64,000 nt of DNA, taken from SAR202 cluster bacterium (GTDB taxonomy: Bacteria > Chloroflexota > Dehalococcoidia > Lucifugimonadales > VGZY01). Shown here in pieces: positions 3,463 through 56,800 of this stretch (its first letter is position 1; each line of letters starts with the position of its first letter). The translations under genes were made by a program, and so were the position numbers. The notes under the pieces were generated by a model. The model did not search any database, was not told the DNA's origin, and saw only the letters and a program-made list of their open reading frames with translations. The stretch covers positions 15,688 to 79,687 of the forward strand of contig VGZY01000004.1 of assembly GCA_016872355.1 (NCBI GenBank). The letters run 5' to 3'.

Positions 3463-3488
3463 TCAAACGCTCCGCCTTCTAGTCTTCC

Positions 3489-3613
3489 TTCTCTCCCCGA
3501 GGGAGAGGCCTTTGCTGCTCTGAGCAAAGGGTGAGGGCTCAGGCTGTCTGCCCCCTTCTTACCTCTCCCTTGACGGGAGAGGTCTTCGGCGCCCTGGCCG
3601 AAGGGTGAGGGTG
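3489..3613. repeat. Two tandem copies of the double-hairpin repeat module
   Basis: Copy 1 (3489-3539): CTCTCCCC-GA-GGGAGAGG, CCTTTGCTGCTCTGAGCAAAGG, GTGAGGG. Copy 2 (3562-3613): CCTCTCCC-TTGAC-GGGAGAGG, TCTTCGGCGCCCTGGCCGAAGG, GTGAGGGTG. Confidence 0.9.
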
Positions 3614-3631
3614 ACGGCTGCTGCGCCTGTT

Positions 3632-3647
3632 CCCCAGTCCCCAGTCC
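3632..3647. repeat. Heptamer tandem repeat CCCCAGT x2 (+ degenerate unit) abutting the pyrC stop codon
   Basis: tCCCCAGTCCCCAGTCCCTAg; the TAG stop of pyrC (3648-3650, minus strand) is the next triplet. Confidence 0.8.
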
Positions 3648-4970
3648 CTAGCCCCCAAAGACCACCTGCCCGCTGTAAACCGTTGCGGCCACCTTGCCCT
3701 TGAGCGTCGCGCCGTCAAGTGGCGTGTTCTTGCCCTTGGATGCGAACTGCTTTGCGTCCACCTTCCACTCGGCGTCCGGGTCGAAGATGGTCACGTCCGC
3801 GGGCGCCCCTGCCTTCAGCGTGCCGAGGTTCCTGCCCAGGAACTTCGCCGGCGCGACAGTCAGCTTCTCGATAAGCAGCGGCAGCGGCATGCCGCCGGAG
3901 TGCACCAGCGTCATGAGCAGTCCGAGCGTCGTCTCCAGGTTGCTGATGCCGTTAGCGGCCTCGTCGAACGTGCACTGCTTGTCCGTGCGGCTGTGCGGCG
4001 CGTGGTCGGTCGCGATGAAGTCCACAACGCCGTCCTTGAGCGCCTTTACCATCGCGGCAACATCCTCGCGTCCCCGCAGCGGCGGCGAGACGCGCGCGCT
4101 GGTGTCGTACGACGCCGTCGTGAGCGGGTCGAACCGCTTGCCTATGTTCGCGTAGCCCAGCACCGTCTCGTCCGGCAGCGTGAGGTGGTGCGGCGTTACC
4201 TCGCACGTCACGCTCAGGCCGCGCTCCTTCGCGCGCTTCACTATCTCCACGGTGCCCGACGTGCTTGCGTGGGCGACGTGCAGCCTGCCGCCGGTGATTT
4301 CCGCCAGCGAGACGTCGCGCGCCGCCATCGCCTCCTCTGACGAGCGGGGTATTCCGCGCAGGCCGAGGCGCGTGGCCACCCACCCTTCGTTCATGACGCC
4401 CGCGCCTGACAGCTCCTTCACTTCGCAGTGGTTGATGATCGGCAGCCCCAGGCCGGAGGCGTAGCTGAGCGCCTGGCGCATCACGTTGGCGTCGCCCACA
4501 GGGTGGCCGTCGTCGCTGAAGCCGATGACGCCGGACTTCGCCATCTCGCCCATCTCGGCCAGCTCGGCGCCCTTGCTACCCTTCGTCACCGCGCCGATGG
4601 GCAGGACGCGCACGACGCCCTCTTCCTTCGCGCGGCGGTTGACGAAGTCCACTATCGAGCTGTTGTCCATGACCGGGTTGGTGTTCGGCATCGCGCAAAG
4701 GGTGGTGAAGCCGCCGCGTGCCGCCGCCAGCGTGCCGCTCGCGATCGTCTCCTTGTACTCCAGCCCCGGCTCGCGGAGATGGCAGTGGAGGTCAATGAAG
4801 CCCGGGCACACGATCAGCCTCTGCGCGTCGATTACCTTTGCGCCCGCAGGCGGGTTGATCCGCGCGTCGATGCCGGTGATGACGCCGTTCTCGATGAGCA
4901 GGTCCGCGATCTTGTCGATGTTCTGCGACGGGTCGACGATGCGCCCGCCGGAGATGAGAATGGGGGTCAT
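3648..4970 (-). CDS. pyrC: Dihydroorotase
   Basis: 440 aa. Cyclic amidohydrolase motifs PGFIDLHCHLREPG and IATDHAPH. Located in the pyr operon context. Confidence 0.92.
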   Translation of the reverse strand: MTPILISGGRIVDPSQNIDKIADLLIENGVITGIDARINPPAGAKVIDAQRLIVCPGFIDLHCHLREPGLEYKETIASGTLAAARGGFTTLCAMPNTNPVMDNSSIVDFVNRRAKEEGVVRVLPIGAVTKGSKGAELAEMGEMAKSGVIGFSDDGHPVGDANVMRQALSYASGLGLPIINHCEVKELSGAGVMNEGWVATRLGLRGIPRSSEEAMAARDVSLAEITGGRLHVAHASTSGTVEIVKRAKERGLSVTCEVTPHHLTLPDETVLGYANIGKRFDPLTTASYDTSARVSPPLRGREDVAAMVKALKDGVVDFIATDHAPHSRTDKQCTFDEAANGISNLETTLGLLMTLVHSGGMPLPLLIEKLTVAPAKFLGRNLGTLKAGAPADVTIFDPDAEWKVDAKQFASKGKNTPLDGATLKGKVAATVYSGQVVFGG

Positions 4971-4974
4971 GTGG

Positions 4975-6024
4975 CTACTTTCCTCCGTGGGCCGGGGTGA
5001 CCAGCGTGTAGAGTATCGCCATGCGCACGGCGACGCCGTTCGTGACCTGCTCCTCGATCACCGAGGCCGCGCCGTGCGCTACCTCCGGGTCGATCTCCAC
5101 GCCCTCGTTTATGGGGCCCGGGTGCATGACAAGCGCATTCGGCTTTGCCAGCTTCATCCGGCGCGGGTTGATGCCCCAGATCCGCGAGTACTCGCGCAGC
5201 GTGGGCAGGTGGCCGGCCTTCATGCGCTCAAGCTGCAGGCGCAGCGCCATGACCACGTCCGCGCCCTCCAGCGCCTTTTCGACGTTGTTCTCGATCTTCA
5301 CGCCGGCGAAGGGGTGCCCCTTCTGCCTTTTGGCGCCGTTCAGGAAGTCCGGCGGCAGGAGCGTCGGCGGCGCGCACAGCGTCACGTCCGCGCCCATCTT
5401 CGTCAGCCCCCACAGGTTGGACCGCGCCACCCTGCTGTACAGGATATCGCCGACGATGACCACCTTCACGCCCTTGATCTTGCCCAGGTGCTGCTGGATG
5501 GTGAACATGTCCAGCAGCGCCTGCGTGGGGTGCGCGTGCGCGCCGTCGCCGGCGTTGATGACGCTGGCGTCCAGGTGCCTGGCCAGGAAGTGCGGCGCGC
5601 CCGAGTGCGGGTGGCGGATGACGATCATGTCCGCGTTCATCGCCTGCAGCGTCAGCGCCGTATCGTAGAGCGTCTCGCCCTTCTCCACGCTGCTCCCGCT
5701 GGAGGAGACGTTGATGACGTCCGCGCTGAGAATCTTCCCCGCTTGCTCGAACGATGCGCGGGTGCGTGTGCTGGCCTCGTAGAAGAGCGTGAAGATGCTC
5801 TTGCCGCGCAGCGTGGGCACCTTGCGGATGGCCCGCTGCTGAACCTCGCGCATTGCGACGGCGTTCTGAAGAACGTCGTCGACCTCCTGCGGCGTAAAGT
5901 CGTCCAGGTCCAGCACGTGGCGCCTGCCCGCCTGGGGCCGCGCGTTCGGGTTGATCGTCTGCACGCCGGCCACCCGGCTTGCTGCGGCTTGCGATGATGT
6001 CCCTTGAAGGGTCATGCCTCTCAT
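4975..6024 (-). CDS. pyrB: Aspartate carbamoyltransferase catalytic subunit
   Basis: 349 aa. Motifs [13 protein letters not shown] and [10 protein letters not shown]. Its ATG overlaps the pyrR TGA (ATGA), which supports the long N-terminus, but a later start cannot be excluded. Confidence 0.9.
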
Positions 6025-6566: not shown

Positions 6567-6570
6567 AACC

Positions 6571-6616
6571 TCTCTCCCTAACCCTCTCCCCTGAGAGGGG
6601 AGAGGGGATAAGAGGG
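6571..6616. repeat. Short-form hairpin repeat (CTCTCCCC-TGAG-AGGGGAGAG flanked by CCCTAACC)
   Basis: Lies between the pyr attenuator terminator and the pyrR start codon. Same subfamily as 32296-32345; both translate as [10 protein letters not shown] in one frame. Confidence 0.8.
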
Positions 6617-6619
6617 CAC

Positions 6620-6745
6620 AAAAAAACCTCTCGCCGTTGAGGTTGTGGCAAGAGGCTACTGCGGCCCGCGCCGCGCATGGCAACGCCGGTAAGTACCCGC
6701 GCGCCCGCTTCGTATTAGCCTTGCCAGCCTCTCGGGACTGACTTA
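6620..6745 (-). promoter_or_regulatory. PyrR-dependent transcription attenuator (binding loop + intrinsic terminator)
   Basis: The minus-strand RNA contains CAGUCCCGAGAGGCUGG (6726-6739 region), matching the PyrR binding-loop consensus remembered as AGUCCAGAGAGGCU. Downstream is the hairpin CCUCUUGCC-N11-GGCGAGAGG followed by U7 (6620-6657). Confidence 0.8.
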
Positions 6746-6773
6746 AAGGACCGTTGTCAGAGTCACTCACTCA

Positions 6774-6870: not shown

Positions 6871-6905
6871 TGCCAACTACCAACTTCTAACTACCAACTG
6901 CCCTC

Positions 6906-7448: not shown

Positions 7449-8114
7449 CTATAGGGGGCCGAACAGTGTATTCAGTAAAGAACTGTCGACGATCTCCATC
7501 GACTCGATCCGGAGGTCGGCGCGGGAGAGGTCCATGTACGCCGTCGACTGGCTCGGCACGGCGATGCAGTACATCCCCGCCCGCTTCGCGGACCGCGCCC
7601 CCGTGGGCGAGTCCTCCAGCGCCAGGCACAGCGACGGCGCCACGCCAAGGGCGGCTGCCGCCTTCAGGTACGGCTCGGGGTCCGGCTTGTGGCGCGCAAC
7701 GTCCTCCGCGGCAACCACCGCCGCAAAGTACCCCCGCAGGCCAAGCTGCGCCGAGGCTGTCTCAACGTACGACCGCGTGCCGGATGTGACCAGCGCGCAA
7801 GGCACGCGCCGCTCCGCCAGCCTGTCCAAAAGGCGGCGGACGCCTGGGCGTGGCTGGAGCTGCGTCCGGACAAGCTCGTCGAAATACCGGTCCCGGGCGG
7901 AGAGCAGCGCACGCCCGTCGGGTATGCCGTAGTCCCGTGCGATGGCCAGCATCGTCGCCTCCACCGTCCCCCCGATATACCGCTCGCCGTCCGCCTGCGT
8001 GTACGCGATGCCGTGGCCAGCCATTGCAAGCCGCGTCGACTCGAAGTGCAGCGGCTCGGAGTCAACCGTTAGCCCGTCGAAGTCGAAGCACGCCGCGCGA
8101 AGATAGTTGGCCAT
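7449..8114 (-). CDS. HAD-IA family hydrolase (beta-phosphoglucomutase/phosphatase-like)
   Basis: 221 aa from MANYLRAACFDFDGLTVDSE (DxDG motif I), with later VTSG and EDSPTGARSAKRAGM motifs. Confidence 0.8.
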   Translation of the reverse strand: MANYLRAACFDFDGLTVDSEPLHFESTRLAMAGHGIAYTQADGERYIGGTVEATMLAIARDYGIPDGRALLSARDRYFDELVRTQLQPRPGVRRLLDRLAERRVPCALVTSGTRSYVETASAQLGLRGYFAAVVAAEDVARHKPDPEPYLKAAAALGVAPSLCLALEDSPTGARSAKRAGMYCIAVPSQSTAYMDLSRADLRIESMEIVDSSLLNTLFGPL

Positions 8115-8196
8115 TGGTTCTCGCAATTGCAGGGATCTCGATGACAGGAAGCGGTGGACGCTTCTTTCGACGCGCAAATGTCTCAGCCCACCGATG

Positions 8197-8535
8197 TCAC
8201 ACCAGTCCGAGACTTCTGCGCAGAGCCTCGTCAACCTCCAGCATCTTCTCAAAAGGAAGATTGCCGATCTGTGCGCCTAATTCTGTCTGGTTTACTGTTT
8301 GTATTTGTTCGCACAAGACGAGGCCGTCCAATCGCAACCCGCTTTCAAGTGCGGTAAACGGCACATGAAATGGGTATGGCCGAGATTTCGACTGAGACGT
8401 TATGGCGGCGACGATAGTAGTTCTACTTGTCCTGTTGCCAGCATCGTTTTGAATAATGAGCACCGGCCGTCTACCGCCTTGCACAGTGCCGCTCGTCCGG
8501 CGTTCGAGCCAGTTAATGTCACCGCGTCTTATCAA
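8197..8535 (-). CDS. mazF: MazF/PemK-family endoribonuclease toxin
   Basis: 112 aa. RRGDINWL..GRRPVLIIQND...AAITSQ is typical of PemK/MazF. It overlaps the upstream RHH antitoxin by 17 nt. Confidence 0.85.
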   Translation of the reverse strand: MIRRGDINWLERRTSGTVQGGRRPVLIIQNDAGNRTSRTTIVAAITSQSKSRPYPFHVPFTALESGLRLDGLVLCEQIQTVNQTELGAQIGNLPFEKMLEVDEALRRSLGLV

Positions 8536-8800
8536 CTGGCCCTTCTTCCCACACAGTATTGTTGAAGATCATGTCCTGGGCGTAAGGGAACGATTCCGCA
8601 GCCAAACGCTGATTTTCCTCCGCCATTTCTTTATAGCCTTCCTCCATCAGCGCATAGATACGGGCCTTCTCCTCCTTCTCCAACAGGTCTGCGATAACCC
8701 CGCTGCGTGTAGTGTCTCGCTCCCTGGCAAGCCTATCAGCTACCTCCAACAGCTCTTTCCGAAGACTGATAGTAACCTTTGCCGTTGTGCTTTGCGCCAT
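8519..8800 (-). CDS. Ribbon-helix-helix (CopG/MazE-like) antitoxin
   Basis: 93 aa. AKVTISLRKELLEVADRLARERDTTRSGVIADLL is an RHH N-terminus. Positioned upstream of mazF. Confidence 0.75.
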   Translation of the reverse strand: MAQSTTAKVTISLRKELLEVADRLARERDTTRSGVIADLLEKEEKARIYALMEEGYKEMAEENQRLAAESFPYAQDMIFNNTVWEEGPVDKTR

Positions 8801-8867
8801 TTCACACCTCCACCGTAAATCTTGTCATACCAATAGTATGAACGCAAGTATGGCCAAGCAGGAATAC

Positions 8868-9335
8868 TCAGACAAGAATGAGTTCAGGAAAGTACGTGCG
8901 GTAGTACCCGCGATCCCTGGTGAGTAAACGGTCGGCGTGGACAATAGCGTGGGCGCCTATCTGGAAATCGGCCAGCACGTGTTGCCGCTGGGCCAGCGGC
9001 GAATTGCAGCTGACGCAACTGACGGCGGCCATTGCTCCGCAGGAGGCACAAATCATCCTGGAAGGCCGGCGCTGCCTGTAGGACTGCCACGCCTTGCCGG
9101 CCAGGAAGAGTGCTTCCGCGCCCGATCGATGTACCCGTATGCTGGCCTCTGAAAGGAACTCCTCCAGGTCGTTCACCTGAGAAAAGTTCGCGGCGAGCTC
9201 TGAATAGACCGGTTCGGAAATAATCGTCGCGCCAGAGCGCGCGGCATCTTCGAGAAGTTGCTCGGAGGAGTCTCCGTGAGGTGCGCCGGAAATCAGTACA
9301 TCCAGCACGATATTGGTGTCGATCGCGGTGATCAT
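8868..9335 (-). CDS. vapC: PIN-domain toxin with an inserted CxxC...CxxC zinc-ribbon-like segment
   Basis: 155 aa. PIN N-terminus ITAIDTNIVLDVL and C-terminus DFQIGAHAIVHADRLLTRD. The internal MICASCGAMAAVSCVSCNS carries four Cys. Its start overlaps the antitoxin stop (TAATG). Confidence 0.8.
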   Translation of the reverse strand: MITAIDTNIVLDVLISGAPHGDSSEQLLEDAARSGATIISEPVYSELAANFSQVNDLEEFLSEASIRVHRSGAEALFLAGKAWQSYRQRRPSRMICASCGAMAAVSCVSCNSPLAQRQHVLADFQIGAHAIVHADRLLTRDRGYYRTYFPELILV

Positions 9336-9559
9336 TACCCGCGCATCTCCCTGACAAGCTCATCCGGGTCCTGCCCGGCCAGGTGCTTCAGGTAACCACG
9401 GTACTTCTTGAGGTGCCCGGGTGGCACTTTCTTCCGGACCATCATATTGCCGCGCTCAGAAATGAACTCGAGCTCATCGCCCTCACGCAGGCCCAAAGCC
9501 TCACGGACTTCCTTGGGAACGGTAATCTGCCCCTTCGTGGTAAGTTTTGCGCTTGTCAC
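9335..9559 (-). CDS. AbrB/MazE/SpoVT-type antitoxin
   Basis: 74 aa. KLTTKGQITVPKEVREALGLREGDELEF is the swapped-hairpin AbrB fold signature. Confidence 0.85.
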   Translation of the reverse strand: MTSAKLTTKGQITVPKEVREALGLREGDELEFISERGNMMVRKKVPPGHLKKYRGYLKHLAGQDPDELVREMRG

Positions 9560-9645
9560 GTCTGCTTCTCCGGAAGGAATATGCTCCGTGACACATTGTA
9601 AGGCAAATATGTAAGGAAATCCATTCCGTCAATTCGTGCGATCCC

Positions 9646-10980
9646 CTACTCCCCGTAGAACCACCGCGGGTCCAGCACCCGGACCCTGTTTCCGCGGTCG
9701 TGCGGCGCAAGGCCCAGCTTCTCCATGAGGGCGGTGTACTCGATCCCAAACTGCTCCCTGATCGCCGCCTTGTCGCCGAAGACGCAAATGCCATAGGTGA
9801 TCACCGCCTTGCCGTCCACGAACGTCAGCGCGGGCTCGTTCTGGCGGAGCGGGCCGGGCGCGCGGTGGTAGCGCTTGCGGTCGGTGGGCTGGCGGAACTT
9901 GCCGATGAGGAGGCGCTCGATCGGCGGCGTCTCGATGTACGCGACGTCGTCCAGGGACTCCAGGTTGCGGTGGTGCTGCCACGTCTCGCCATCGTCCTTG
10001 CTGATGGCGCAGGTGAGGCGGTGGCGGTAGTAGCCTTGCATAAGCTCCCACGGCGATGTCTGGTTCCAGATGACGAGCAGGTCCGTGTCGGCGTGATCCC
10101 TACCGTGTTCTCCTCTCCCGGCTCCGCGGGAGAGGACGTCCGGCTCCGCGGACAGGTGAGGGCGCGGTATCCTCTTGATGTTGCACGGCGCAGCCCCGGA
10201 CGCGAGGCCGGTCGGCACAGCCTCCGACCACGTCTCGCAGCCGTCGTCCGAGTACGCCTTGAAGTACTGGCCGAGCTGCGTGCGGCCGACCATCATCACG
10301 CGGCCGTCCTTCATCTCCACGACGGCGGGCTCCTCGATCGAGAACGAGCCGCCCACGCCGTTGCCCAGGATGACCCACGACTCATTCTTGCTCCGTTGCC
10401 ACGTCCGGCCTTCGTCGTCGGAGTAGTACGCGAAGCCGAACGCGAGCACGCCGCCCGCGCCGCCTGCGAAGTCCTCTCCGAAGCGCCGGAGCTTCTTCGG
10501 GTCGCCGCCCAGGTACTTTGTCCTGAGGGTCGCAAAGGAGGGCATCACAACGCGACCCGTCCGCAGAACGATGAGGTTGTCGTGGTTCGTGTGGATGTCC
10601 GTCCCCGGCGGGCTCACGTCCACGCCGTCCGACCACGTCGCCCCCTCGTCCGTCGACCTGTGGAATGTGTTGACGCTGGAGCCGTCCGCCGGTCGGTAAC
10701 GGGTCACGGAGAGCCCGATAGCGCCGCTGGTCAAACGCACGAGCTGCGTCTCGAAGGAGCCCGTGAGGGCGCCGCCGCCCGCCAGCTTCATAGACACGGG
10801 CGCGGTCCACATCTTTCCCATGTCCGACGAGTAGTTGACCTTGATCGGCCTGTCGTCCTTCGCGCCCTCGCCCCATACCCACATCAGCCGCCCGTCCTTC
10901 AGCCCAATGATGCTCGAATACGACGGGCTGAGCCCGACGGTATCCATCTTGATCGTAACGTTGGTAATTTCAGTGGACAC
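9646..10980 (-). CDS. BNR/sialidase-fold beta-propeller protein, paralogue 1 (no signal peptide)
   Basis: 444 aa with repeated SxDxGxTW (Asp-box) motifs: SSDMGKMWT, STDEGATWS, SDDEGRTWQ, SDDGCETWS, SKDDGETWQ. Contains a repeat-derived insert at 10095-10170. Confidence 0.8.
   Translation of the reverse strand: MSTEITNVTIKMDTVGLSPSYSSIIGLKDGRLMWVWGEGAKDDRPIKVNYSSDMGKMWTAPVSMKLAGGGALTGSFETQLVRLTSGAIGLSVTRYRPADGSSVNTFHRSTDEGATWSDGVDVSPPGTDIHTNHDNLIVLRTGRVVMPSFATLRTKYLGGDPKKLRRFGEDFAGGAGGVLAFGFAYYSDDEGRTWQRSKNESWVILGNGVGGSFSIEEPAVVEMKDGRVMMVGRTQLGQYFKAYSDDGCETWSEAVPTGLASGAAPCNIKRIPRPHLSAEPDVLSRGAGRGEHGRDHADTDLLVIWNQTSPWELMQGYYRHRLTCAISKDDGETWQHHRNLESLDDVAYIETPPIERLLIGKFRQPTDRKRYHRAPGPLRQNEPALTFVDGKAVITYGICVFGDKAAIREQFGIEYTALMEKLGLAPHDRGNRVRVLDPRWFYGE
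10095..10170. repeat. Hairpin repeat module embedded in frame in BNR paralogue 1
   Basis: CCTCTCCCGGCTCCGCGGGAGAGG ... GTCCGGCTCCGCGGAC AGGTGAGGG. It encodes RPHLSAEPDVLSRGAGRGEHGRDHAD, which is absent from paralogue 3. Confidence 0.8.
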
Positions 10981-11006
10981 TGGATTCTCCCGGCTCTTTG
11001 TATTGT

Positions 11007-11098
11007 CCCTCTCCCGGTTCGCGCGGCGGAACGGGAGAAGGAGGCTGTTAGCTCACTGCCGACTGCCGACTGCCGACTGCTCACTGCCCACTGCCATT
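11007..11098. repeat. Intergenic composite: hairpin (CCCTCTCCCG-N14-CGGGAGAAGG) + CTGCCGA-type heptamer array
   Basis: Hairpin at 11007-11043; heptamers CTGCCGA x3, CTGCTCA, CTGCCCA, CTGCCAT at 11050-11098. Fills the gap between BNR paralogues 2 and 1. Confidence 0.9.
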
Positions 11099-11102
11099 CC
11101 CC

Positions 11103-12461
11103 CTACTCCCCATAAAACCAGGCCGTCTTCAGCACGCGGACCCGGTTGCCGCTGTCGAAGGGGGCGAGCCCCAGCTTCTCCATAAGCGCCTGGTAGGACA
11201 CTCCGAAGCGCTGCGGGTTCTCCGCCTTGTCGCCGAAGGCGCGCACGCCGTAGGTGATAATGGCGGTGTCGCCAACGAAGGTGATCGATGGCTGGTTGCA
11301 CCTGAGCGGCCCCGGAGCGCGGTGTTAGCGCTTGCGGTCCACCGGCTGGGCCGTCTTGCCGATCAGGTCCGCCTCTACCGGCCCAGGTTCGATATACGCA
11401 ACGTCGTCCAGCGACTCCAGGTTGCGGTGGCGTTGCCACGTCTTGCCCTCGTCTTTGCTGACGGCGCAGGTCAGCCGGTGCCGGAAGAGGCCGTTCATCG
11501 TCTCCCACTGCGACGCCTGGTTCCAGATAACGAGGAGGTCGGCATCGGCGAGGTCGCTACCGTTTTCTCTTCTCCCGGCCCCGCGGGAGAGGATGTCGCG
11601 CTCCGGCGACAGGTGAGGGAGGTGAGGGCGCGGGATGCGAGTGACCGTCGCGGGTGAGGGGTAGCAGGCTAGGCCGGTAGGCTCGGGCATCGACCATGTC
11701 TCGCCGAGGTCGTCGGAATAGCACTGGAAGTGGCGGCCCAGGTTCGTTCGGCCGAGCATCATCACCCGCCCGTCAACGAGCTCCACCACAGCCGGCTCCC
11801 CCATCGAATAGCAGCCCAGCGCGCCGGTGTCCAGGACGACGAATGCCTCGTTGTTGCTGCGCTTCCAGGTGGCGCCCTCGTCGTCGGAGTAGTACGCGCT
11901 GGAGTACGCAAGCGCGCAGCGAGAGGCGCCGTCGAACGACTCTCCCAGTCGCTTGATGGCCCTTACGTCGCCCGTCGGCATCGGCCCCATCATGTCGTAG
12001 AAGGGGACAACTATCCGTCCATCCCTCAGGACTATCGAGCTCTCATTGGCGCATACGGCGTCCGCCCCCGGAGGGTTGATGCGCACCGGCGGCGACCACG
12101 TCGCGCCCTCGTCCTTCGAGGAGGTGAATATCAGCCCGGCGTGGTAGTCCGCCTCGTACGCGCCCGTGTGGGCATAGGCCCGCATCACGAGGCCGATGCC
12201 GCCGGACTTGAGCCTGAAGATGTTCGTTTCCATGATGGCCGGCAGCGGCCCGCCGGTCGTCAGCTTGAGGTGCACCGGCGCGGACCACGTCGCGCCACCG
12301 TCCTCGGAGAAGTTCGCCCGCACGGGCTTCACGGGGTCCGCGCTGCCGGAGCCGTACACCCACATGAGCCGGCCGTCGCGCAGCGGCAGCACAGCGCCGT
12401 AGGATGGGCTGAGGTCTACCGTGTCCAGCTTGATCGTCGCATTAACGAGATCCGACGCCAT
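11103..12461 (-). pseudogene. BNR/sialidase-fold paralogue 2, interrupted by one in-frame TAA
   Basis: The frame from MASDLVNATIKLDTVDLSPSYG (ATG 12459-12461) reads to ...QPVDRKR, then TAA at 11325-11327. It then continues in the same frame as HRAPGPLRCNQPSITFVGDTAIITYG...KTAWFYGE to TAG at 11103-11105. Paralogues 1 and 3 have Tyr at the stop position (RKRYHRAPGPL / LKRYHRSPGPL). Confidence 0.85.
11545..11640. repeat. Hairpin repeat module embedded in frame in BNR paralogue 2
   Basis: CTTCTCCCGGCCCCGCGGGAGAGG ... CAGGTGAGGGAGGTGAGGG. It encodes RPHLPHLSPERDILSRGAGRRENGSDLAD at the same site as in paralogue 1. Confidence 0.8.
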
Positions 12462-12480
12462 AGGCCTCCCTCCGGCTGTT

Positions 12481-12528
12481 ACCGACAGCTCACTGTTGCT
12501 CCGAACCCCGATTCCATCGGGGCCTACC
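12481..12528. repeat. Degenerate heptamers + CCCCGAT-TCC-ATCGGGG hairpin
   Basis: Intergenic between BNR paralogues 3 and 2. The hairpin core is shared with the 33089-33174 element. Confidence 0.6.
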
Positions 12529-13803
12529 CTACTCACCGTAGAACCAGCTCGACGACACTACCCGGACTTTGTTCCCCCGGTCGTACGGGGCGAGGCCCAG
12601 CTTCTCCATGAGCGCCTCGTACGATAAGCCGAACCGCTCCGGGATCTCCGCCTTGTCGCCGAAGACGCACATTCCGTAGGTAATGACCGCCTTGTCGCCA
12701 ACGAAGACACACGAGGGCTGGTTGAAGCGCAGCGGGCCGGGAGATCGGTGGTAGCGCTTGAGGTCCGCCGGCTGTTTGAACTTGCCTACGAGGTCGATCT
12801 GGATCGGCCCCGGCTCGATGTAGGACACGTCGTCCATCGATTCCAGGTTGCGGTGGTGCTGCCACGTCTTCCCCTCGTCCTTGCTCACAGCAGTGCTAAG
12901 GCGGTGGCGGTAGAGGCCGTTCATAGTTTCCCACTGTGATATCTGGTTCCAGATGACGACCAGATCGCCGGTGGTCGTGATGCGCTTGATCGTCGCCGGA
13001 GAGGGGTAGCATGCGAGCTGCGTCGGCTCCGGCTGCATCCACGTCTCGCCCGCGTCGTCGGATACGCTCTGGAAGAAGCGGCCAACGTTTGTGCGCGCCA
13101 GCATCAGCACCTTGCCGCCCTTCAGCTCCACCACGGCCGGCTCGCCCATGGAGTAGCTGCCTCCCGCGCCGTGTTCAAGGTTCACGAAGGCCTCATTGTT
13201 GCTCCGCCTCCACGTCGCGCCCTCGTCGTCGGAAAGGAACGCGCTGCAGTAGTAGAGCGTCGCGCGCTCGGGATTGCTGAAGCTCGCGCCGTACCTCTGC
13301 ACCGCCCGCACTTCGCCATACGGCTTCGCGCCGATGCCGATGTAGTACGGCACGATGATGCGGCCGCTGCTGTGGACGATCGACTTCTCGTTCGTAATGA
13401 CGGCGTTCGTTCCGGGCGGGTTGATAGTCACTGGCGGCGACCACGTCGCGCCCTCGTCTTGCGAGGCTGAGAAGATGATGCTCGCCTGGTAGTCGGCCTC
13501 GTATGCTCCGGCCTTCGCGGACCCCCGCAGCACAAGGCCGATGCCGCCGGACTTCAGTCTGAAGAGGTTCGTATCGAGGACGGCAACGAAGGGCTCGCCG
13601 GTCGTGAGTTTGAGGTGCACGGGCGCGGACCACGTCGCGCCTCCATCGCTGGAAAAGTTCGCCCGAACGGGGAGTGCGGGGTTGGCCCTGCCGGAGGTGT
13701 ATATCCACATCAGCCGCCCGTCGTTGAGCGGGATCACCGCCCCATAAGACGGGCTCTGGTCTACCTTGCCCATCTTCACGATGGTGTTTACGTATTCAGG
13801 CAT
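12529..13803 (-). CDS. BNR/sialidase-fold beta-propeller protein, paralogue 3
   Basis: 424 aa from MPEYVNTIVKMGKVDQSPSYG, with Asp-boxes SSDGGATWS, SQDEGATWS, SDDEGATWR, SDDAGETWM, SKDEGKTWQ. Lacks the repeat-derived insert (..IKRITTTGDLVVIWNQ..). Confidence 0.8.
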   Translation of the reverse strand: MPEYVNTIVKMGKVDQSPSYGAVIPLNDGRLMWIYTSGRANPALPVRANFSSDGGATWSAPVHLKLTTGEPFVAVLDTNLFRLKSGGIGLVLRGSAKAGAYEADYQASIIFSASQDEGATWSPPVTINPPGTNAVITNEKSIVHSSGRIIVPYYIGIGAKPYGEVRAVQRYGASFSNPERATLYYCSAFLSDDEGATWRRSNNEAFVNLEHGAGGSYSMGEPAVVELKGGKVLMLARTNVGRFFQSVSDDAGETWMQPEPTQLACYPSPATIKRITTTGDLVVIWNQISQWETMNGLYRHRLSTAVSKDEGKTWQHHRNLESMDDVSYIEPGPIQIDLVGKFKQPADLKRYHRSPGPLRFNQPSCVFVGDKAVITYGMCVFGDKAEIPERFGLSYEALMEKLGLAPYDRGNKVRVVSSSWFYGE

Positions 13804-13882
13804 GGCATGCTCCCGCGAGTTTAGCCGGTGGCGGCTCCGGTGTAGCGGAGCCGTCCGTGGGGAGCATAGTAGAGTCACAGGC

Positions 13883-14209
13883 CTATTCTGGCAATAGCCT
13901 CAGGGCGTCAACGTGCCGGGGGCGGAGAATGCGAAAATGCCGCTGGTCAAGAGTGGCAAGCTTTGGCTCGCGAAGGCGTTCGACTATAGCAAGGACGGAA
14001 GCATCTACGAAGCCGATGTCGGAGTCCGCGTACCGTACGCAGAGCTCATGGACACGGAGATAGTCAGCTGGCGTAAGGTCTTCAACCAAGTACGCGCCGG
14101 AGAGGACGTCCTCAAGTAAAACAAGAAAAGCCTGAGTCTGGCCACGGCTAGTGAGAAGGTACTCAGTTTCTGCACTAGCGCCATGACCTGGGCACCGTCT
14201 TAATATCAC
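13883..14209 (-). CDS. VapC-family PIN toxin, apparently lacking the N-terminal catalytic segment (remnant?)
   Basis: The C-terminal two thirds (GAYLVEDLTPADYLRVHELCVRYADSDIGFVDASVLAIVERLREPKLATLDQRHFRILRP) look like a VapC. No N-terminal ..LDTS.. acidic motif can be found, and the longer ORF runs out of frame across the antitoxin gene. The start is uncertain (GTG 14207-14209 is possible). Confidence 0.5.
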   Translation of the reverse strand: MILRRCPGHGASAETEYLLTSRGQTQAFLVLLEDVLSGAYLVEDLTPADYLRVHELCVRYADSDIGFVDASVLAIVERLREPKLATLDQRHFRILRPRHVDALRLLPE

Positions 14210-14567: not shown

Positions 14568-14618
14568 CCTAACACCTAACACCTAACACCTAACACCCAA
14601 TCCCTGACACCTAACACC
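14568..14618. repeat. Heptamer tandem array (CCTAACA)4-CCCAATC-CCTGACA-CCTAACA
   Basis: Seven consecutive 7-nt units end 2 nt before the ATG at 14619. They lie in the divergent region between 14399 (-) and 14619 (+). Confidence 0.9.
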
Positions 14619-14987
14619 ATGCCTGACACCAACGTCAAAATTCACGACTATGCCGACGAGCTGATATCCACGCCGCGCGCGCACCTGGCGCTTGATCTGT
14701 CGCAGGACGAGCAGGGGCTGAAGCTCAGCCACGACGGGAAGATGCTCGTGGAGTGCTACATCACGCGGGATGGGATGGCTGCGGGCGGGTTCATGGCGAA
14801 GGCGCTGGGGGTAAAACTTCCACCGCTGGGAAAGGCCGTGAAGGCGCGCGTCTCCACAGGGGTCCTCTTCCGAGCGGTATCTATAGCGTCGCTGGACTTC
14901 AACGTCGAGGAGTCGTTCGAGCTTCTGGAGCGGTGGCTGGAGGAGGCAGAGCTTCAGCGCGGCGGTGAGGATGTGTCGGCGTCGTAG
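14619..14987 (+). CDS. Hypothetical protein (no family recognised)
   Basis: 122-aa ORF MPDTNVKIHDYADELISTPRAHLALDLSQDEQ.... No Shine-Dalgarno is visible because the heptamer array reaches the start codon. Confidence 0.45.
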   Translation: MPDTNVKIHDYADELISTPRAHLALDLSQDEQGLKLSHDGKMLVECYITRDGMAAGGFMAKALGVKLPPLGKAVKARVSTGVLFRAVSIASLDFNVEESFELLERWLEEAELQRGGEDVSAS

Positions 14988-26614: not shown

Positions 26615-26691
26615 AGTGGTATACGGGCGCATGCGCCGGCTCGTAGTTTGAGAAGGCAGTTGCGGTGGTATTGTCACGCGTGGGCGAGGCC

Positions 26692-26743
26692 CACCCTCAC
26701 CCTTTGCCCAGAGCGGCAAAGGCCTCTCCCTCAATGGAGAGGA
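26692..26743. repeat. Double-hairpin repeat module, reverse orientation
   Basis: CCCTCAC, CCTTTGCCCAGAGCGGCAAAGG, CCTCTCCC-TCAAT-GGAGAGG is the reverse complement of the module at 3489-3613 and 54572-54623. Confidence 0.9.
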
Positions 26744-26917
26744 GGTATGCGGCGCCATCCCGTAACCATTGTGCCCGGTTTGCACCCTCTTGTTTTCTCC
26801 CCCTCGACTCGGGAGATGTCGCAGCTCCGGGCGACAGAGAGGGTGGCCGGGGTGGCGCGGCGCCGGGATCCTCGCCCTGTGCCCTCGTAGTGGCGGGCTC
26901 TGCCCGCCTCCGATGGT

Positions 26918-33174: not shown

Positions 33175-33225
33175 GTGAAGTCAAATCGCCCCGATACAAC
33201 CGGGCCGCTGTCTTGCCGACGGCTC

Positions 33226-33270
33226 TCTGCTCACTGCCGACTGCCATCTGCTGACTGCCATCTGCCATCC
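33226..33270. repeat. Heptamer array (..CTG-ending units: CTCACTG CCGACTG CCATCTG CTGACTG CCATCTG CCATCCT)
   Basis: Reverse complement is GGATGGCAGATGGCAGTCAGCAGATGGCAGTCGGCAGTGAG, the same GGCAGTC family as in ileS and 11050-11098. Confidence 0.8.
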
Positions 33271-33302
33271 TGCTATAATCGTCCGATAGAACTTCAAGCC
33301 GC

Positions 33303-53624: not shown

Positions 53625-53860
53625 TCGAAATCTTAATCGGTATCGGCGACGACGGAGACGAGTAGCGGGAAGCGGCCGCACAGCGAGTCTGGCGGCCCGA
53701 TGCAGATCGGGCCAAGGTGTGAGCAGACGCGACGCGCCCCGGCGAATATCACTCCCGAGCCGAGCTTAACGAAGGTGTCCTGAGGCCCGCCGCTCAGGAA
53801 ACTAGGGTGGTACCGCGGGTAGATCATGCCCGTCCCTTGCGCAGGGACGGGCATTTTTGT
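53625..53860 (+). promoter_or_regulatory. T-box riboswitch leader, Ile specifier (AUC)
   Basis: Canonical T-box sequence AGGGTGGTACCGCG (53803-53816). Specifier-loop-like GAATATCA with ATC at 53748-53750 followed by a purine. Terminator ATGCCCGTCCC-TTGCGCA-GGGACGGGCAT + TTTTT (53826-53858), directly upstream of ileS. TGcTAAAAT extended -10-like box at 53609-53617. Confidence 0.85.
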
Positions 53861-53875: not shown

Positions 53876-56800
53876 ATGTTCAAGCCGGTCAGCTCTAAAG
53901 TGGACTTTGTAGCCGTCGAGCATGCGATGCAGGAGTTCTGGGACAAGAACCAGGTCCGGCAAAAGTACCTCGAGCGCAACGACGGCGCGGAGAAAAGGTA
54001 CTCCTTCATCGATGGCCCCATCACGGCTAATAACCCCATGGGTGTCCACCACGGCTGGGGCCGCACCTATAAGGACCTCTTCCAGCGCTTCAAGGCCATG
54101 CAGGGCTACGACCAGCGCTTTCAAAACGGCTTCGACGGCCAGGGCCTGTGGATTGAGGTCGAGGTGGAGAAGCAGCTCGGACTGAACTCCAAGCGCGACA
54201 TCGAGAAGTACGGAATCGACAAGTTCATCGAGCTCTGCAAAGAGCGCGTCAGGAAGTTCGCCGCTATCCAGACCAACCAGTCGATCCGCCTCGGCTATTG
54301 GATGGACTGGGAGAACTCGTACCACACGATGTCGGACGAGAACAATTACTCGATCTGGCACTTCCTCAAGGTGTGCTTCGAGCGCGGCTGGGTCTACGAG
54401 GGCACGGACGTCATGCCGTGGTGTCCCCGCTGCGGAACCGGCCTGTCGCAGCACGAGATTGTGACCGAGGGCTACAAGGAGATCACCCACCCCGGCCTGT
54501 TCGTCCGCTTCCCGCTGGTGCAGAATGGCAGTCAGCAGTCGGCAGTCGGCAGTCAGCCGGAGGGGTCTGTTCCTCTCCCTCAGGGAGAGGCCTTTGGGCG
54601 CTTTGGCCCAAAGGGTGAGGGTGTTCCCCTGCCCGAGTCTCTCCTCATCTGGACGACCACTCCGTGGACGCTCACCGCCAACGCCGGCGCTGCCGTCCAC
54701 CCGGACCTCACCTACGTGAAGGTGAAGGTAAAGGGCACCGCGCCCGACAAGGGCGACGAGGTGCTGTACCTCCTGAAGGAGCGCCTGTCCGTCCTCAAGG
54801 CGGAGCACGAGATCCTGCGCGAGATGCCGGGCAAGATGCTTGGGGGCCTCGTCTACCGCGCGCCGTTCGAGGAGCTGAAAGCCCAGGAGGGCGTCAAGCA
54901 CCGAGTCGTCGTGTGGGATGAGGTCAGCCAGAGCGAGGGCACCGGCATCGTGCACAACGCGCCCGGCGCGGGCCAGGAGGACTTCGCTCTCGGCAAGAAG
55001 GAGGGGCTGTCCGTAATCGCGCCGCTGGACGAGTTCGGCAGCTTCGTCGAGGGGTTCGGTTCGTTCACCGGCAAGAGCGTCTTCGAGGTCAACAAGCCGA
55101 TCTATGACAGCCTGCGCGAGAAGGGCGTCTTCTACCGGCTGGACCAGTACAAGCACCGCTACCCCGTATGCTGGCGCTGCAACACAGAGCTCGTCTTCAG
55201 GCTCGTGGACGAGTGGTTCATCTCCATGGACGAGCTGCGGCACATGATCGCCAACGTTGCCAAACAGGCGCGGTGGATACCGGAGTTCGGACTCCAGCGC
55301 GAGCTGGACTGGCTCAACAACATGCACGACTGGATGATCTCAAAAAAGCGCTACTGGGGCCTTGCGCTGCCCATCTACAAGTGCTCCTGCGGCCACTTCG
55401 AGGTCATCGGCAGCGAGACCGAGCTGGGCCTGCGGGCGATCGAGGGGTGGGACAAGTTCCAGGGACACTCCCCTCACCGCCCGTGGATAGACCACGTCAA
55501 GATCGAGTGCCCGCGGTGCGGCGGCAAGGTGTCGCGCATCAAGGACGTCGGCAACCCGTGGCTGGACGCCGGCATCGTGCCGTTCTCGACACTCCAGTAC
55601 CGCCACGACAAGGAGTACTGGAAGAAGTGGTTCCCGGCGGACCTCGTCTCCGAGAGCTTCCCGGGCCAGTTCCGCAACTGGTTCTACTCCCTGCTGACCA
55701 TGAGCACGGCTCTCGAGAACGCCACGCCGTTCAAGAACATCTTCACCTACGCCCTCATGCGCGACGAGAAGGGCGAGGAGATGCACAAGAGCAAGGGCAA
55801 CGCAATCTGGTTCGAGGACGCCGCCGAGAAGATGGGCGCGGACTCCATGCGCTGGCTCTACAGCCGCCAGAACCCGCCGCAGAACCTGAACTTCGGCTTC
55901 AACGTCGCGGACGAGGTGCGCCGCCAGTTCATAATCCCGCTGCGGAACGTTTACAGCTTCTTCGTCACCTACGCGAATATCGACAACTTCGACCCCACGT
56001 CGCCCGCGCCCGCGTTGAAGGACCGTGCCGAGCTCGACCGCTGGATCATCTCGGAGCTCAACAAGCTCGTCGCGGACGTTACGAACGCCCTCGAGAACTA
56101 CAGCCCGGACGGCGCGGCCAAGGCGTGCGAAGAGTTCGTGGAGTACCTGTCGAACTGGTACGTCCGCCGCAGTCGCCGCCGCTTCTGGAAGAGCGACGTC
56201 GACCAGGACAAGCAGTCCGCGTACTTGACGCTGTACGAGTGCCTGACGACGCTCACGAGGCTGCTCGCCCCGTTCATGCCGTTCCTGATGGAGGAGATGT
56301 ACCAGAATCTGGTAGTCGGCAGTCAGCAGTCAGCAGTCGGCAAAGCCAAAGAGAGCGTCCACCTGGACGACTTCCCCGTCTCAGACCCATCGAAGATCGA
56401 CACACGCCTGTCGGACGCTACCCGACTGGCGATGAAGCTCTCCAGCCTGGGCCGCTCCGCGCGCGCCAGGACCTCCATCAAGGTGCGCCAGCCGGTCGAG
56501 AAGCTCCTCGTGAAGCTGCGTGCGACGGAGGAGGCGGCCCTGCTGGAGCAGGTGGCCCCACAGGTGCGCGATGAGCTGAACGTCAAGCAGGTAGAAGTGC
56601 TCAAGGACGAGACGCAGGTCATGACCATCGACATCAAGCCGAACCTGGCGCTCCTGGGTCCCGAGTACGGCGCAAACATGCGCAAGGTCGTCGCCGCGCT
56701 CCAGGCGCTGCCGCCGATGGAGGTCTACGCGCAGGCGTCGTCCGGCAAGCAGGTCAAGGCGGGCGAGTTCACGCTGGAGCCTCAGGAAGTCCTCGTGAAC

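Follow-up and report, generated by a model that had tools for sequence, protein, structure and literature searches.

The BoxC repeat of the 1990s (Bachellier), which is the same as the PIT element of Hoyne and Maher (2000), corresponds to the G/C-rich intrastrand triplex motif treated as TMECO by Holder et al. (2015, PMC4666352). The TMECO consensus is CCCTCNCCC-N3-6-GGGNGAGGG-N3-GGGNGAGGG, in which the second loop has 3 nt (TTA or CCG), and this arrangement of blocks forms a purine-motif intrastrand triplex in vitro (PMC4666352). The copies in E. coli are described as 'always intergenic', and TMECO has been reported from proteobacteria, G/C-rich triplex motifs more broadly being found also in cyanobacteria (PMC4666352). 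Palindromic elements lying in frame in unrelated, often essential genes, at sites compatible with the protein fold, are known from Rickettsia, where other copies are intergenic (Ogata et al. 2000; reviewed in PMC10969869). In this work, a stretch of 64,000 nt from a SAR202 cluster bacterium (contig VGZY01000004.1, positions 15,688 to 79,687; 63% G+C), referred to as the window, was analysed. Its ileS gene for isoleucyl-tRNA synthetase (IleRS) carries an in-frame insert with two parts, a ~55-nt module of the BoxC/PIT/TMECO type and, ahead of it, a (R)GCAGTC heptamer array.

The ileS reading frame is without a break (53807/53876 to 57142), and the predicted protein, IleS, contains the Pfam domains tRNA-synt_1, Anticodon_1 and DUF5915, with 8c8w and 1ile as the best matches in the Protein Data Bank (PDB). 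It is 100% identical to the isoleucine--tRNA ligase deposited for a SAR202 cluster bacterium metagenome-assembled genome (MAG) on an 84.7-kb contig. In the insert, a 17-nt spacer separates the heptamer array from hairpin 1 of the module (CCTCTCCC-TCA-GGGAGAGG, 54572-54590), which has 8 bp, as compared with 7-10 bp in the other copies. Hairpin 2 is CCTTTGGGC-GCTTTG-GCCCAAAGG, and the 3' tail is GGGTGAGGGTG. When folded as single-stranded DNA, the 59-nt core forms two side-by-side hairpins, with the 3' G-block unpaired (-18 kcal/mol, z = -4.5). In the window, the hairpin-1 pattern has 4 matches versus 0.02 expected by chance, and the heptamer-triplet pattern has 8 versus 0.00. A weak 9/11 direct repeat, GTTCCTCTCCC/GTTCCCCTGCC, lies on both sides of the module and is perhaps a degenerate next C-stem.

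To build a covariance model (CM) of the module, designated R1, 5 copies from the window were combined with 32 from other genomes. The model detects six full modules in the window (42-49 bits, E 1e-11 to 1e-13), three of which are intergenic and three in frame in genes (Table 1). The third block, GGGTGAGGG, is present in 6/6 full copies and is unpaired in the DNA fold. A further, weak match at 1654-1696 is native carA sequence and was discarded as a false positive. The preliminary description of this DNA had placed a heptamer array, two hairpins and a tail at 54521-54636 in an unbroken ileS frame, and had attributed them to an intergenic, dispersed repeat family that colonised the gene. The frame is indeed a single open reading frame (ORF), the DNA of the insert is exactly as described, the three intergenic modules and the composite at 11007-11098 that were cited as copies are real, and the CM finds the intergenic copies in the same window. 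The modules at 10110-10165 and 11572-11622, the second ileS array at 56311-56342 and the short-loop copy at 6567-6607 (minus strand) were absent from that description.

BoxC/PIT/TMECO and the module have three identical blocks, namely CCCTCTCCC, then GGGAGAGGG after a loop of 3-6 nt, and finally GGGTGAGGG. Both are dispersed, occur in both orientations, often as inverted pairs, and have no associated transposase known. R1 matches the BoxC pair between E. coli gabT and gabP with 42.4 and 30.2 bits, with hairpin 2 deleted. The short-loop copy at 6567-6607, the only one in the window in which loop 2 is TTA as in E. coli type A, is 80-90% identical to a repeat that 5414/5426 E. coli genomes carry, the median number of places being 12. 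Given the same three blocks and these matches, the ileS module belongs to the BoxC/PIT/TMECO type, with a stem-loop (~24 nt in the ileS copy) replacing the 3-nt loop 2. Loop 2 thus differs, with 3 nt in BoxC/PIT/TMECO versus a covarying stem-loop of 15-32 nt across the module family. Moreover, BoxC is described as always intergenic in E. coli, whereas 3/6 window modules are carried in frame by genes, the essential ileS among them, and TMECO has been reported from proteobacteria, whereas the module occurs in SAR202/Chloroflexota and many other phyla. Published searches for triplex motifs set the upper limit of loop length at 6 or 10 nt (PMC4666352) and would therefore miss the stem-loop variant. 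Laid antiparallel to GGGAGAGG, the free GGGTGAGGG block gives only the allowed triplets of the purine motif (G*G-C, T*A-T and A*A-T), as judged by inspection.

Scanning of one genome per species with the pattern CTCTCCC-N3-7-GGGAGAG-N15-32-GGTGAGGG revealed at least 120 loci in many phyla. Among the matches listed are Alphaproteobacteria (Bradyrhizobium, Sphingomonas, Caulobacter, Devosia), Polyangia, Geomonas and Planctomycetota, and further Verrucomicrobiota, Acidobacteriota, Cyanobacteria, Chloroflexota, Elusimicrobiota and others. Judged by these matches, the module DNA is not specific to SAR202. R1 identified 182 copies in the window and 99 fetched loci (96 from the genome scan; 802,869 bases), and the cross-phylum copies are often inverted pairs 20-100 bp apart. 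Across the family, hardly any change occurs in the three G/C blocks. The hairpin 2 stem, by contrast, varies freely in sequence while its pairing is always kept, with 92.5% of cells paired and 136 double-sided changes versus 39 in shuffles, none of 500 shuffles being as high. A C-GNA-G triloop closes hairpin 2 in 71/150 cross-phylum copies (GAA 39, GCA 16, GGA 9 and GTA 7). Triloops of this kind form an unusually stable type of DNA mini-hairpin.

The module also lies in frame in genes of other organisms. As supported by Pfam, it is found in a TPP-dependent enzyme of a cyanobacterium of the Leptolyngbyaceae (L077:1448-3373), in a phage-type terminase large subunit in Alphaproteobacteria, where it separates the N and C domains (L023:1676-4003), and inside a PMT_2 glycosyltransferase in Chloroflexota (L053:2252-3832). 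Altogether 21/122 module copies are situated in frames that run for 100 codons or more to either side without a stop, a figure that is an upper bound because many long stop-free spans are Arg-rich shadow frames and only these three are confirmed by Pfam. Either strand of the module is used relative to the host gene among the window copies in coding sequences (CDS), which argues for a DNA-level event rather than a function in mRNA. Taken together, the use of both strands, the copies inside CDS and the C-GNA-G triloops favour a DNA-level element over an RNA gene.

This bears on the Whalefall-1 RNA (RF01762), a proposed non-coding RNA that has been reported solely from a whale-fall metagenome (Weinberg et al. 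2010, PMC2864571). Like the module, Whalefall-1 consists of CUCUCC-loop-GGAGAG, a variable second hairpin and then AGGGUGAGG (3' GGGUGAGG). The ileS module matches the Whalefall-1 model over its full length (model positions 1-56) with 25.0 bits, below the gathering score of 37, so that by Rfam's standard the window copies do not belong to this family. Whalefall-1 is the only relative in Rfam, a relation visible only in a narrow-window E-value search, and the whole window gave no Rfam match at gathering score. The presence on both strands, the copies in CDS and the kinship with BoxC suggest that the Whalefall-1 'RNA' is a dispersed DNA repeat, likely misclassified.

The module resembles two other classes of dispersed palindromic repeats. 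The preliminary description had compared it with the in-frame Rickettsia palindromic elements, which is apt as regards behaviour, since in both cases dispersed palindromic repeats lie in frame in genes and other copies are intergenic. It is an analogy only, neither the sequence nor the architecture being alike, with no Rickettsia sequence compared directly: those elements are ~100-150 bp long and confined to Rickettsia, whereas the module is ~55 nt, cross-phylum and accompanied by heptamer arrays. The same description had termed the element 'REP/MITE-like'. A MITE appears improbable: when the six copies were inspected together with their flanks, neither terminal inverted repeats nor a target-site duplication were noted, no dedicated search having been run. 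REP/REPIN elements, mobilised by RAYT, are likewise short, GC-rich, palindromic and dispersed, often as inverted doublets. However, REP stems are conserved within a genome, whereas the hairpin 2 stems of the module vary between copies within one genome. No GTAG-type head was noted in the module copies, and no RAYT gene was seen among the ten window ORFs scanned against Pfam, which was not a full search.

The position of the insert in IleS was defined by an alignment of the 120 best homologues, which are 64-70% identical to the query, the self-match aside. In 90 of them, a 7-residue β-turn segment (x-D/G-R-P/E-G-E-S) lies between FPL and LLxWTTTPWT, and the window IleS has 41 residues there, the longest stretch among the 120, which adds a loop of 34 residues. 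When phmmer was used against all PDB chains, IleRS structures (8c8w, 1ile and others) aligned to residues 14-215 and 255-1056 and jumped 216-254, and the nearest relatives (70% identity) have no insert or unrelated inserts. The extra peptide is thus lineage-specific. The insert had also been placed beside the Thr-rich WTTTPWT segment, and its site is indeed a β-hairpin turn 5 residues ahead of WTTTPWT (259-265), the Thr-rich editing peptide. Structure prediction, put forward at that time as a check, likewise agrees with a loop: AlphaFold2 with a 72-sequence alignment gave a mean predicted local distance difference test score (pLDDT) of 83.4 for IleS, with pLDDT below 50 for residues 218-249 (33-39 in the insert), which have no secondary structure and are flanked by confident strands at 200-214 and 254-260. 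The model thus predicts that the insert protrudes, without order, where the β-hairpin that leads into the editing peptide has its tip.

Loops at exactly this turn are enlarged in 28/120 orthologues (~23%), by 5-34 extra residues of mutually unrelated sequence. In a neighbour-joining tree, the insert-bearing proteins form 22 separate clusters by our own count, corresponding to perhaps at least 15 independent insertion events once adjacent clusters are merged. Most have insert-free sisters that keep the ancestral DRPGE turn, and given this and the scatter in the tree, independent gains are much more parsimonious than precise losses. The DNA of five insert-bearing loci (L001, L002, L003, L245 and L246, SAR202-like contigs from ENA sample ERZ26167216) was read. 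The inserts of L001, L002 and L246 consist of a G-rich heptamer array and then a C-rich one, such as GGGTCCG x3.7 followed by ACCCCCA x4.6; that of L003 is a GGTGAGGG-like purine repeat, and in L245 no repeat is apparent. An older common insertion was considered for the 'NGSQ' that P0001 and P0007 have in common and was rejected, as the Ser codons are AGT versus TCG and L245 has no heptamer. In several of the five contigs, DDE_Tnp_1_4/DDE_Tnp_1 transposase genes (441 aa) recur within 10 kb of ileS, which indicates genomes rich in insertion sequences, and in L003 a group II intron reverse transcriptase gene is also near ileS.

The two other in-frame modules of the window are located in a tandem array of three BNR_2 sialidase-like paralogues (9646-13899, minus strand). 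The third of these lacks the module, and the other two bear it at one and the same turn. In paralogue 1 (9646-10980, minus strand), ~24 residues (RPHLSAEPDVLSRGAGRGEHGRDHAD) are added at the IP-xTGD-LLVIWNQ turn, and in paralogue 2 (11094-12557) the third block of the module is duplicated (GGTGAGGGAGGTGAGGG). These genes read the module from the complementary strand, as ...IPRPHLSAEPDVLSRGAGRGEHGRD.... The turn is tight and free of the module in 79/79 aligned BNR homologues and in the third tandem paralogue. In the tree, paralogue 1 groups with P0122-P0126 and paralogue 2 with paralogue 3 and P0136, those neighbours all being without the insert. As the two insert-bearing paralogues are thus not sisters, either a double insertion at one turn or gene conversion between neighbours has to be assumed. 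Between the two copies of hairpin 2, two adjacent base pairs are swapped on both arms (GTCCG/CGGAC versus GTCGC/GCGAC), so that pairing is kept. Window positions 7659-11741, with both in-frame copies, recur at 100% identity in a separate JGI contig (L243), and hence this stretch is not peculiar to one assembly record. Paralogue 2 also has an in-frame TAA at 11325-11327 (minus strand) where its paralogues have a Tyr codon (DRKR*HRAPGPLR versus DRKRYHRAPGPLR), and its frame goes on for ~75 homologous codons past the TAA. Read-through, an error in sequencing, or a nonsense mutation of recent origin that made paralogue 2 a pseudogene could each account for this.

Bacterial heptamer repeats have been described as the STRR of cyanobacteria, as GGGNATC of Xanthomonas and Nostoc (Rehm et al. 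2015, PMC4692102) and as TAACTGA of Beggiatoaceae (PMC4679880). Like these, the arrays of the window have 3-11 copies of a 7-nt unit, are dispersed and mostly intergenic, and belong to several unit families per genome. However, published heptamer arrays are described as depleted in coding sequence, whereas two are in frame in ileS here, and the GGCAGTC unit is not G-quadruplex-forming. Scanning of metagenomes showed (R)GCAGTC arrays beyond SAR202, the contigs among the matches listed spanning 35-73% G+C, none of which matched the window by blastn. In unrelated organisms, such arrays are in frame in TsaD (L161), PheS (L195), the 5'-3' exonuclease domain of PolA (L177) and HrpA (L141), where they encode peptides of the SAVGSRQS- or SSQQSAV-type.

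The second ileS array adds net 5 residues to a variable loop ahead of ESVHL, in which repeat-like inserts are found in other lineages too. Both ileS arrays are preceded by CAGAAT, encoding Q-N (54521-54526 and 56302-56307), and both encode the same octapeptide, GSQQSAVG, with 23/24 nt identical, which may be coincidence or copying between the sites. Just 5' of ileS, a T-box leader was recognised at 53640-53840 (plus strand; 57.3 bits, E 7.7e-10, below the Rfam gathering score of 93). It aligns over the full length, including the conserved T-box sequence AGGGUGGUACCGCG, and ileS is probably under tRNA-Ile-sensing attenuation.

The data are best accounted for if structured, non-autonomous repeats spread at the DNA level and selection lets pass only those insertions in permissive loops that keep the frame and bring in no stop codon, a reading to which a probability of about 0.7 is given. 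On this reading, a (R)GCAGTC array and a BoxC/PIT-type module would have been inserted into the β-hairpin turn at the entrance of the CP1 editing domain. As single-stranded DNA, the module could fold into a pair of neighbouring hairpins and leave unpaired a GGGTGAGGG block, the mirror of the purine strand in hairpin 1. Either the triplex or a hairpin may be its active form. Spread in the genome may be either trans-acting or driven by replication and repair, in a manner like template switching or gene conversion; the latter route would involve stalling at hairpin or triplex structures, template switching and gene conversion, and would fit the instability data of Holder et al. Most copies would land between genes, and those in genes would survive only if their length is 3n, the frame is stop-free and the site is a permissive surface turn. 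Two of the three frames of the module are open on each strand, and the heptamer array cycles through all three frames. A surviving insert would be translated into a disordered loop, rich in Gly, Pro, Ser and Gln, that need not serve any function, and the IleS turn would be a permissive site that is repeatedly targeted.

Several points weigh against this reading. The mobility of the module is read from its distribution only, because the analysis noted neither a transposase nor a target-site duplication nor a terminal inverted repeat. The closest available IleS relative has 70% identity and no empty/filled polymorphism is shown, so that the ileS insertion cannot be dated. Translation of the insert, including the peptide QNGSQQSAVGSQPEGSVPLPQGEAFGR, is what we infer rather than observe. 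The junction in ileS is known from a single MAG contig, the protein forming a cluster of one with no gene record; a mis-assembly there is unlikely. The SAR202 copies have 6-nt GCYYYG loops in hairpin 2, not GNA triloops. Compensated changes in hairpin 2 do not in themselves point to a function and could reflect selection or the correction of quasi-palindromes during replication, a mechanism known to be able to yield such changes. Finally, Holder et al. report no stable triplex in double-stranded DNA or in vivo (PMC4666352).

Among the alternatives, origin in place from a hypervariable loop, by slippage, duplication and template switching, with the likeness to the repeats due to convergence of sequence prone to non-B DNA, is unlikely. 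Heptamer arrays are classic slippage substrates, those at the IleS turn differ between lineages, the ancestral V-G-S codons at the second ileS site can read GTC GGC AGT, the heptamer itself, and the native ESLL codons of ileS (GAG TCT CTC CTC) look like the C-stem of the module. Nevertheless, a 55-nt three-part module with conserved blocks, scoring 49 bits, is common to five other window loci and to hundreds in other phyla; this architecture makes independent local origin implausible, and no GGCAGTC-like seed was seen at the turn of the five relatives whose DNA was read. An adaptive insert, with the loop modulating IleRS (access to the editing site, translocation of the tRNA CCA-end or partner binding) or with mRNA hairpins regulating ileS translation, is improbable as well. 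It would suit the site 5 residues before the editing peptide, the enlargement of this loop in ~23% of related IleS and the pairing kept by compensated changes between the BNR copies, but it is difficult to reconcile with inserts that are unrelated in sequence, range from 5 to 34 extra residues and show no peptide-level conservation, with the predicted disorder of the ileS insert and with the occurrence of the module on either strand in unrelated proteins and between genes.

It is very improbable that a repeat-induced chimeric join in the MAG put repeat DNA inside ileS. Repeats often cause mis-joins, and the gene is on a metagenome-assembled contig as a single-member IleS protein cluster with no independent gene record; however, both flanks are collinear ileS and the frame is kept over 117 nt, analogous inserts are present at exactly the same turn in independent assemblies from other lineages, and the JGI contig reproduces window positions 7659-11741 with both BNR copies. 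That the insert remains untranslated, through ribosome bypass of the T4 gene 60 or mitochondrial 'byp' type or through RNA excision, is hardly credible. Stable GC-rich hairpins within CDS do resemble byp elements. Yet 3/3 in-CDS copies are 3n long and stop-free in the host frame, which is the signature of selection on translated sequence and would not be needed for bypass. No matching take-off and landing codons were noted, no systematic search having been made, and no intron or intein features were detected, Rfam giving nothing at gathering score.

The element family (BoxC/PIT/TMECO) and the in-frame behaviour of palindromic repeats (Rickettsia) are already known, and given the Rickettsia precedent, the present findings extend a known phenomenon rather than establish a new principle. 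New, as far as the literature searched goes, are the stem-loop variant and its breadth across phyla, its in-frame occurrence in genes, one of them essential, in contrast to the 'always intergenic' copies of E. coli, the link to Whalefall-1, and the finding that heptamer arrays and modules have colonised one IleRS turn again and again; on BoxC/PIT inside CDS, nothing was found beyond Holder et al. (2015). A broader proposal is put forward only tentatively, and is less likely to be correct than not. It holds that BoxC/PIT-type modules, including the Whalefall-1-type variant, and heptamer arrays are cross-phylum repeats that recurrently enter β-turns and inter-domain linkers of conserved proteins (IleRS, PheRS, TsaD, PolA, HrpA and terminase) in frame, as a general source of lineage-specific loops, by structure-dependent spread through replication or repair without a transposase and with some site preference (the IleRS CP1 hairpin). 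If the interpretation is right, BoxC/PIT/TMECO, for ~30 years without a function, would be far more widespread as a long-loop variant and tolerated inside essential genes, and the 'genomic instability' idea of Holder et al. would gain a countable outcome in the form of lineage-specific protein loops. It would also offer an origin for some unexplained low-complexity insertions in conserved proteins of uncultured bacteria, and would make the IleRS CP1 hairpin turn both a map of a permissive site for engineering and a natural experiment on the loop length tolerated at the entrance of the editing domain.

Table 1. Repeat-related features of the 64,000-nt window. AF2, AlphaFold2; TRF, Tandem Repeats Finder.
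Feature	Position	Strand	Evidence
ileS host gene, type-2 (T. thermophilus/IleRS2-like) isoleucyl-tRNA synthetase, 1088 aa	53876-57142	+	ORF, Pfam, PDB matches
In-frame insertion in ileS, 39 codons (QNGSQQSAVGSQPEGSVPLPQGEAFGRFGPKGEGVPLPE) in place of the ancestral ~5-residue turn D-R-P-G-E	54521-54636	+	120-orthologue alignment, phmmer, AF2
Heptamer array GCAGTCR x4.3 in ileS, translated GSQQSAVGS	54528-54557	+	TRF, pattern search
BoxC/PIT-type module in ileS: C-stem CCTCTCCC, loop TCA, G-stem GGGAGAGG, 9-bp stem-loop, third G-block GGGTGAGGG	54570-54624	+	CM R1 49.3 bits, DNA fold, Whalefall-1 25 bits
Second heptamer array inside ileS, GGCAGTC-type, peptide VVGSQQSAVGKAK where orthologues read VGSVNGGK	56311-56342	+	TRF, alignment, codons
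Module in frame, antisense strand, BNR_2 sialidase-like paralogue 1	10110-10165	+	CM 45.5 bits; translation
Module in frame, antisense strand, BNR_2 paralogue 2	11572-11622	+	CM 41.9 bits, copy outside the R1 seed; translation, alignments
Intergenic module between dihydroorotase-like and alpha/beta-hydrolase genes	3488-3540	+	CM 48.2 bits; Pfam of neighbours
Intergenic module in tandem with the 3488-3540 copy, followed by the TCCCCAG array 3631-3657	3562-3614	+	CM 45.6 bits; TRF
Intergenic module between aldo/keto reductase and phosphotransferase genes	26691-26744	-	CM 43.9 bits; Pfam
Canonical short-loop BoxC/TMECO-like copy: C-stem, loop, GGGGAGAGGG, TTA, GGGAGAGAGG	6567-6607	-	Sequence; CM 16.9 bits
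Intergenic composite, minus-strand reading: GGCAGTS array (11055-11095), then CTTCTCCC...GGGAGAGGG hairpin, no third G-block	11007-11098	-	Sequence, TRF
Intergenic GGCAGTC-type heptamer array, degenerate, 21-nt super-period	33214-33274	-	TRF, pattern match
CCTAACA/CCCAATC/CCTGACA heptamer array, 21-nt super-period	14568-14630		TRF
TCCCCAG heptamer array, overlapping last codons and stop of the dihydroorotase-like gene	3631-3657		TRF
CCAACTA heptamer array	6873-6899		

The unit of the array at 3631-3657 is a rotation of the cyanobacterial STRR1 unit CCCCAGT. The tandem modules at 3488-3540 and 3562-3614 sit within the pyrimidine gene cluster, which includes carA (930-2129) and the dihydroorotase-like gene (3648-5057). 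A PyrR binding-site leader was found at 6618-6753 (minus strand; 47 bits, gathering score 54), upstream of a pyrR-like phosphoribosyltransferase gene, and the short-loop BoxC-like copy at 6567-6607 is placed between the terminator of this PyrR attenuator and the pyrR-like start codon.

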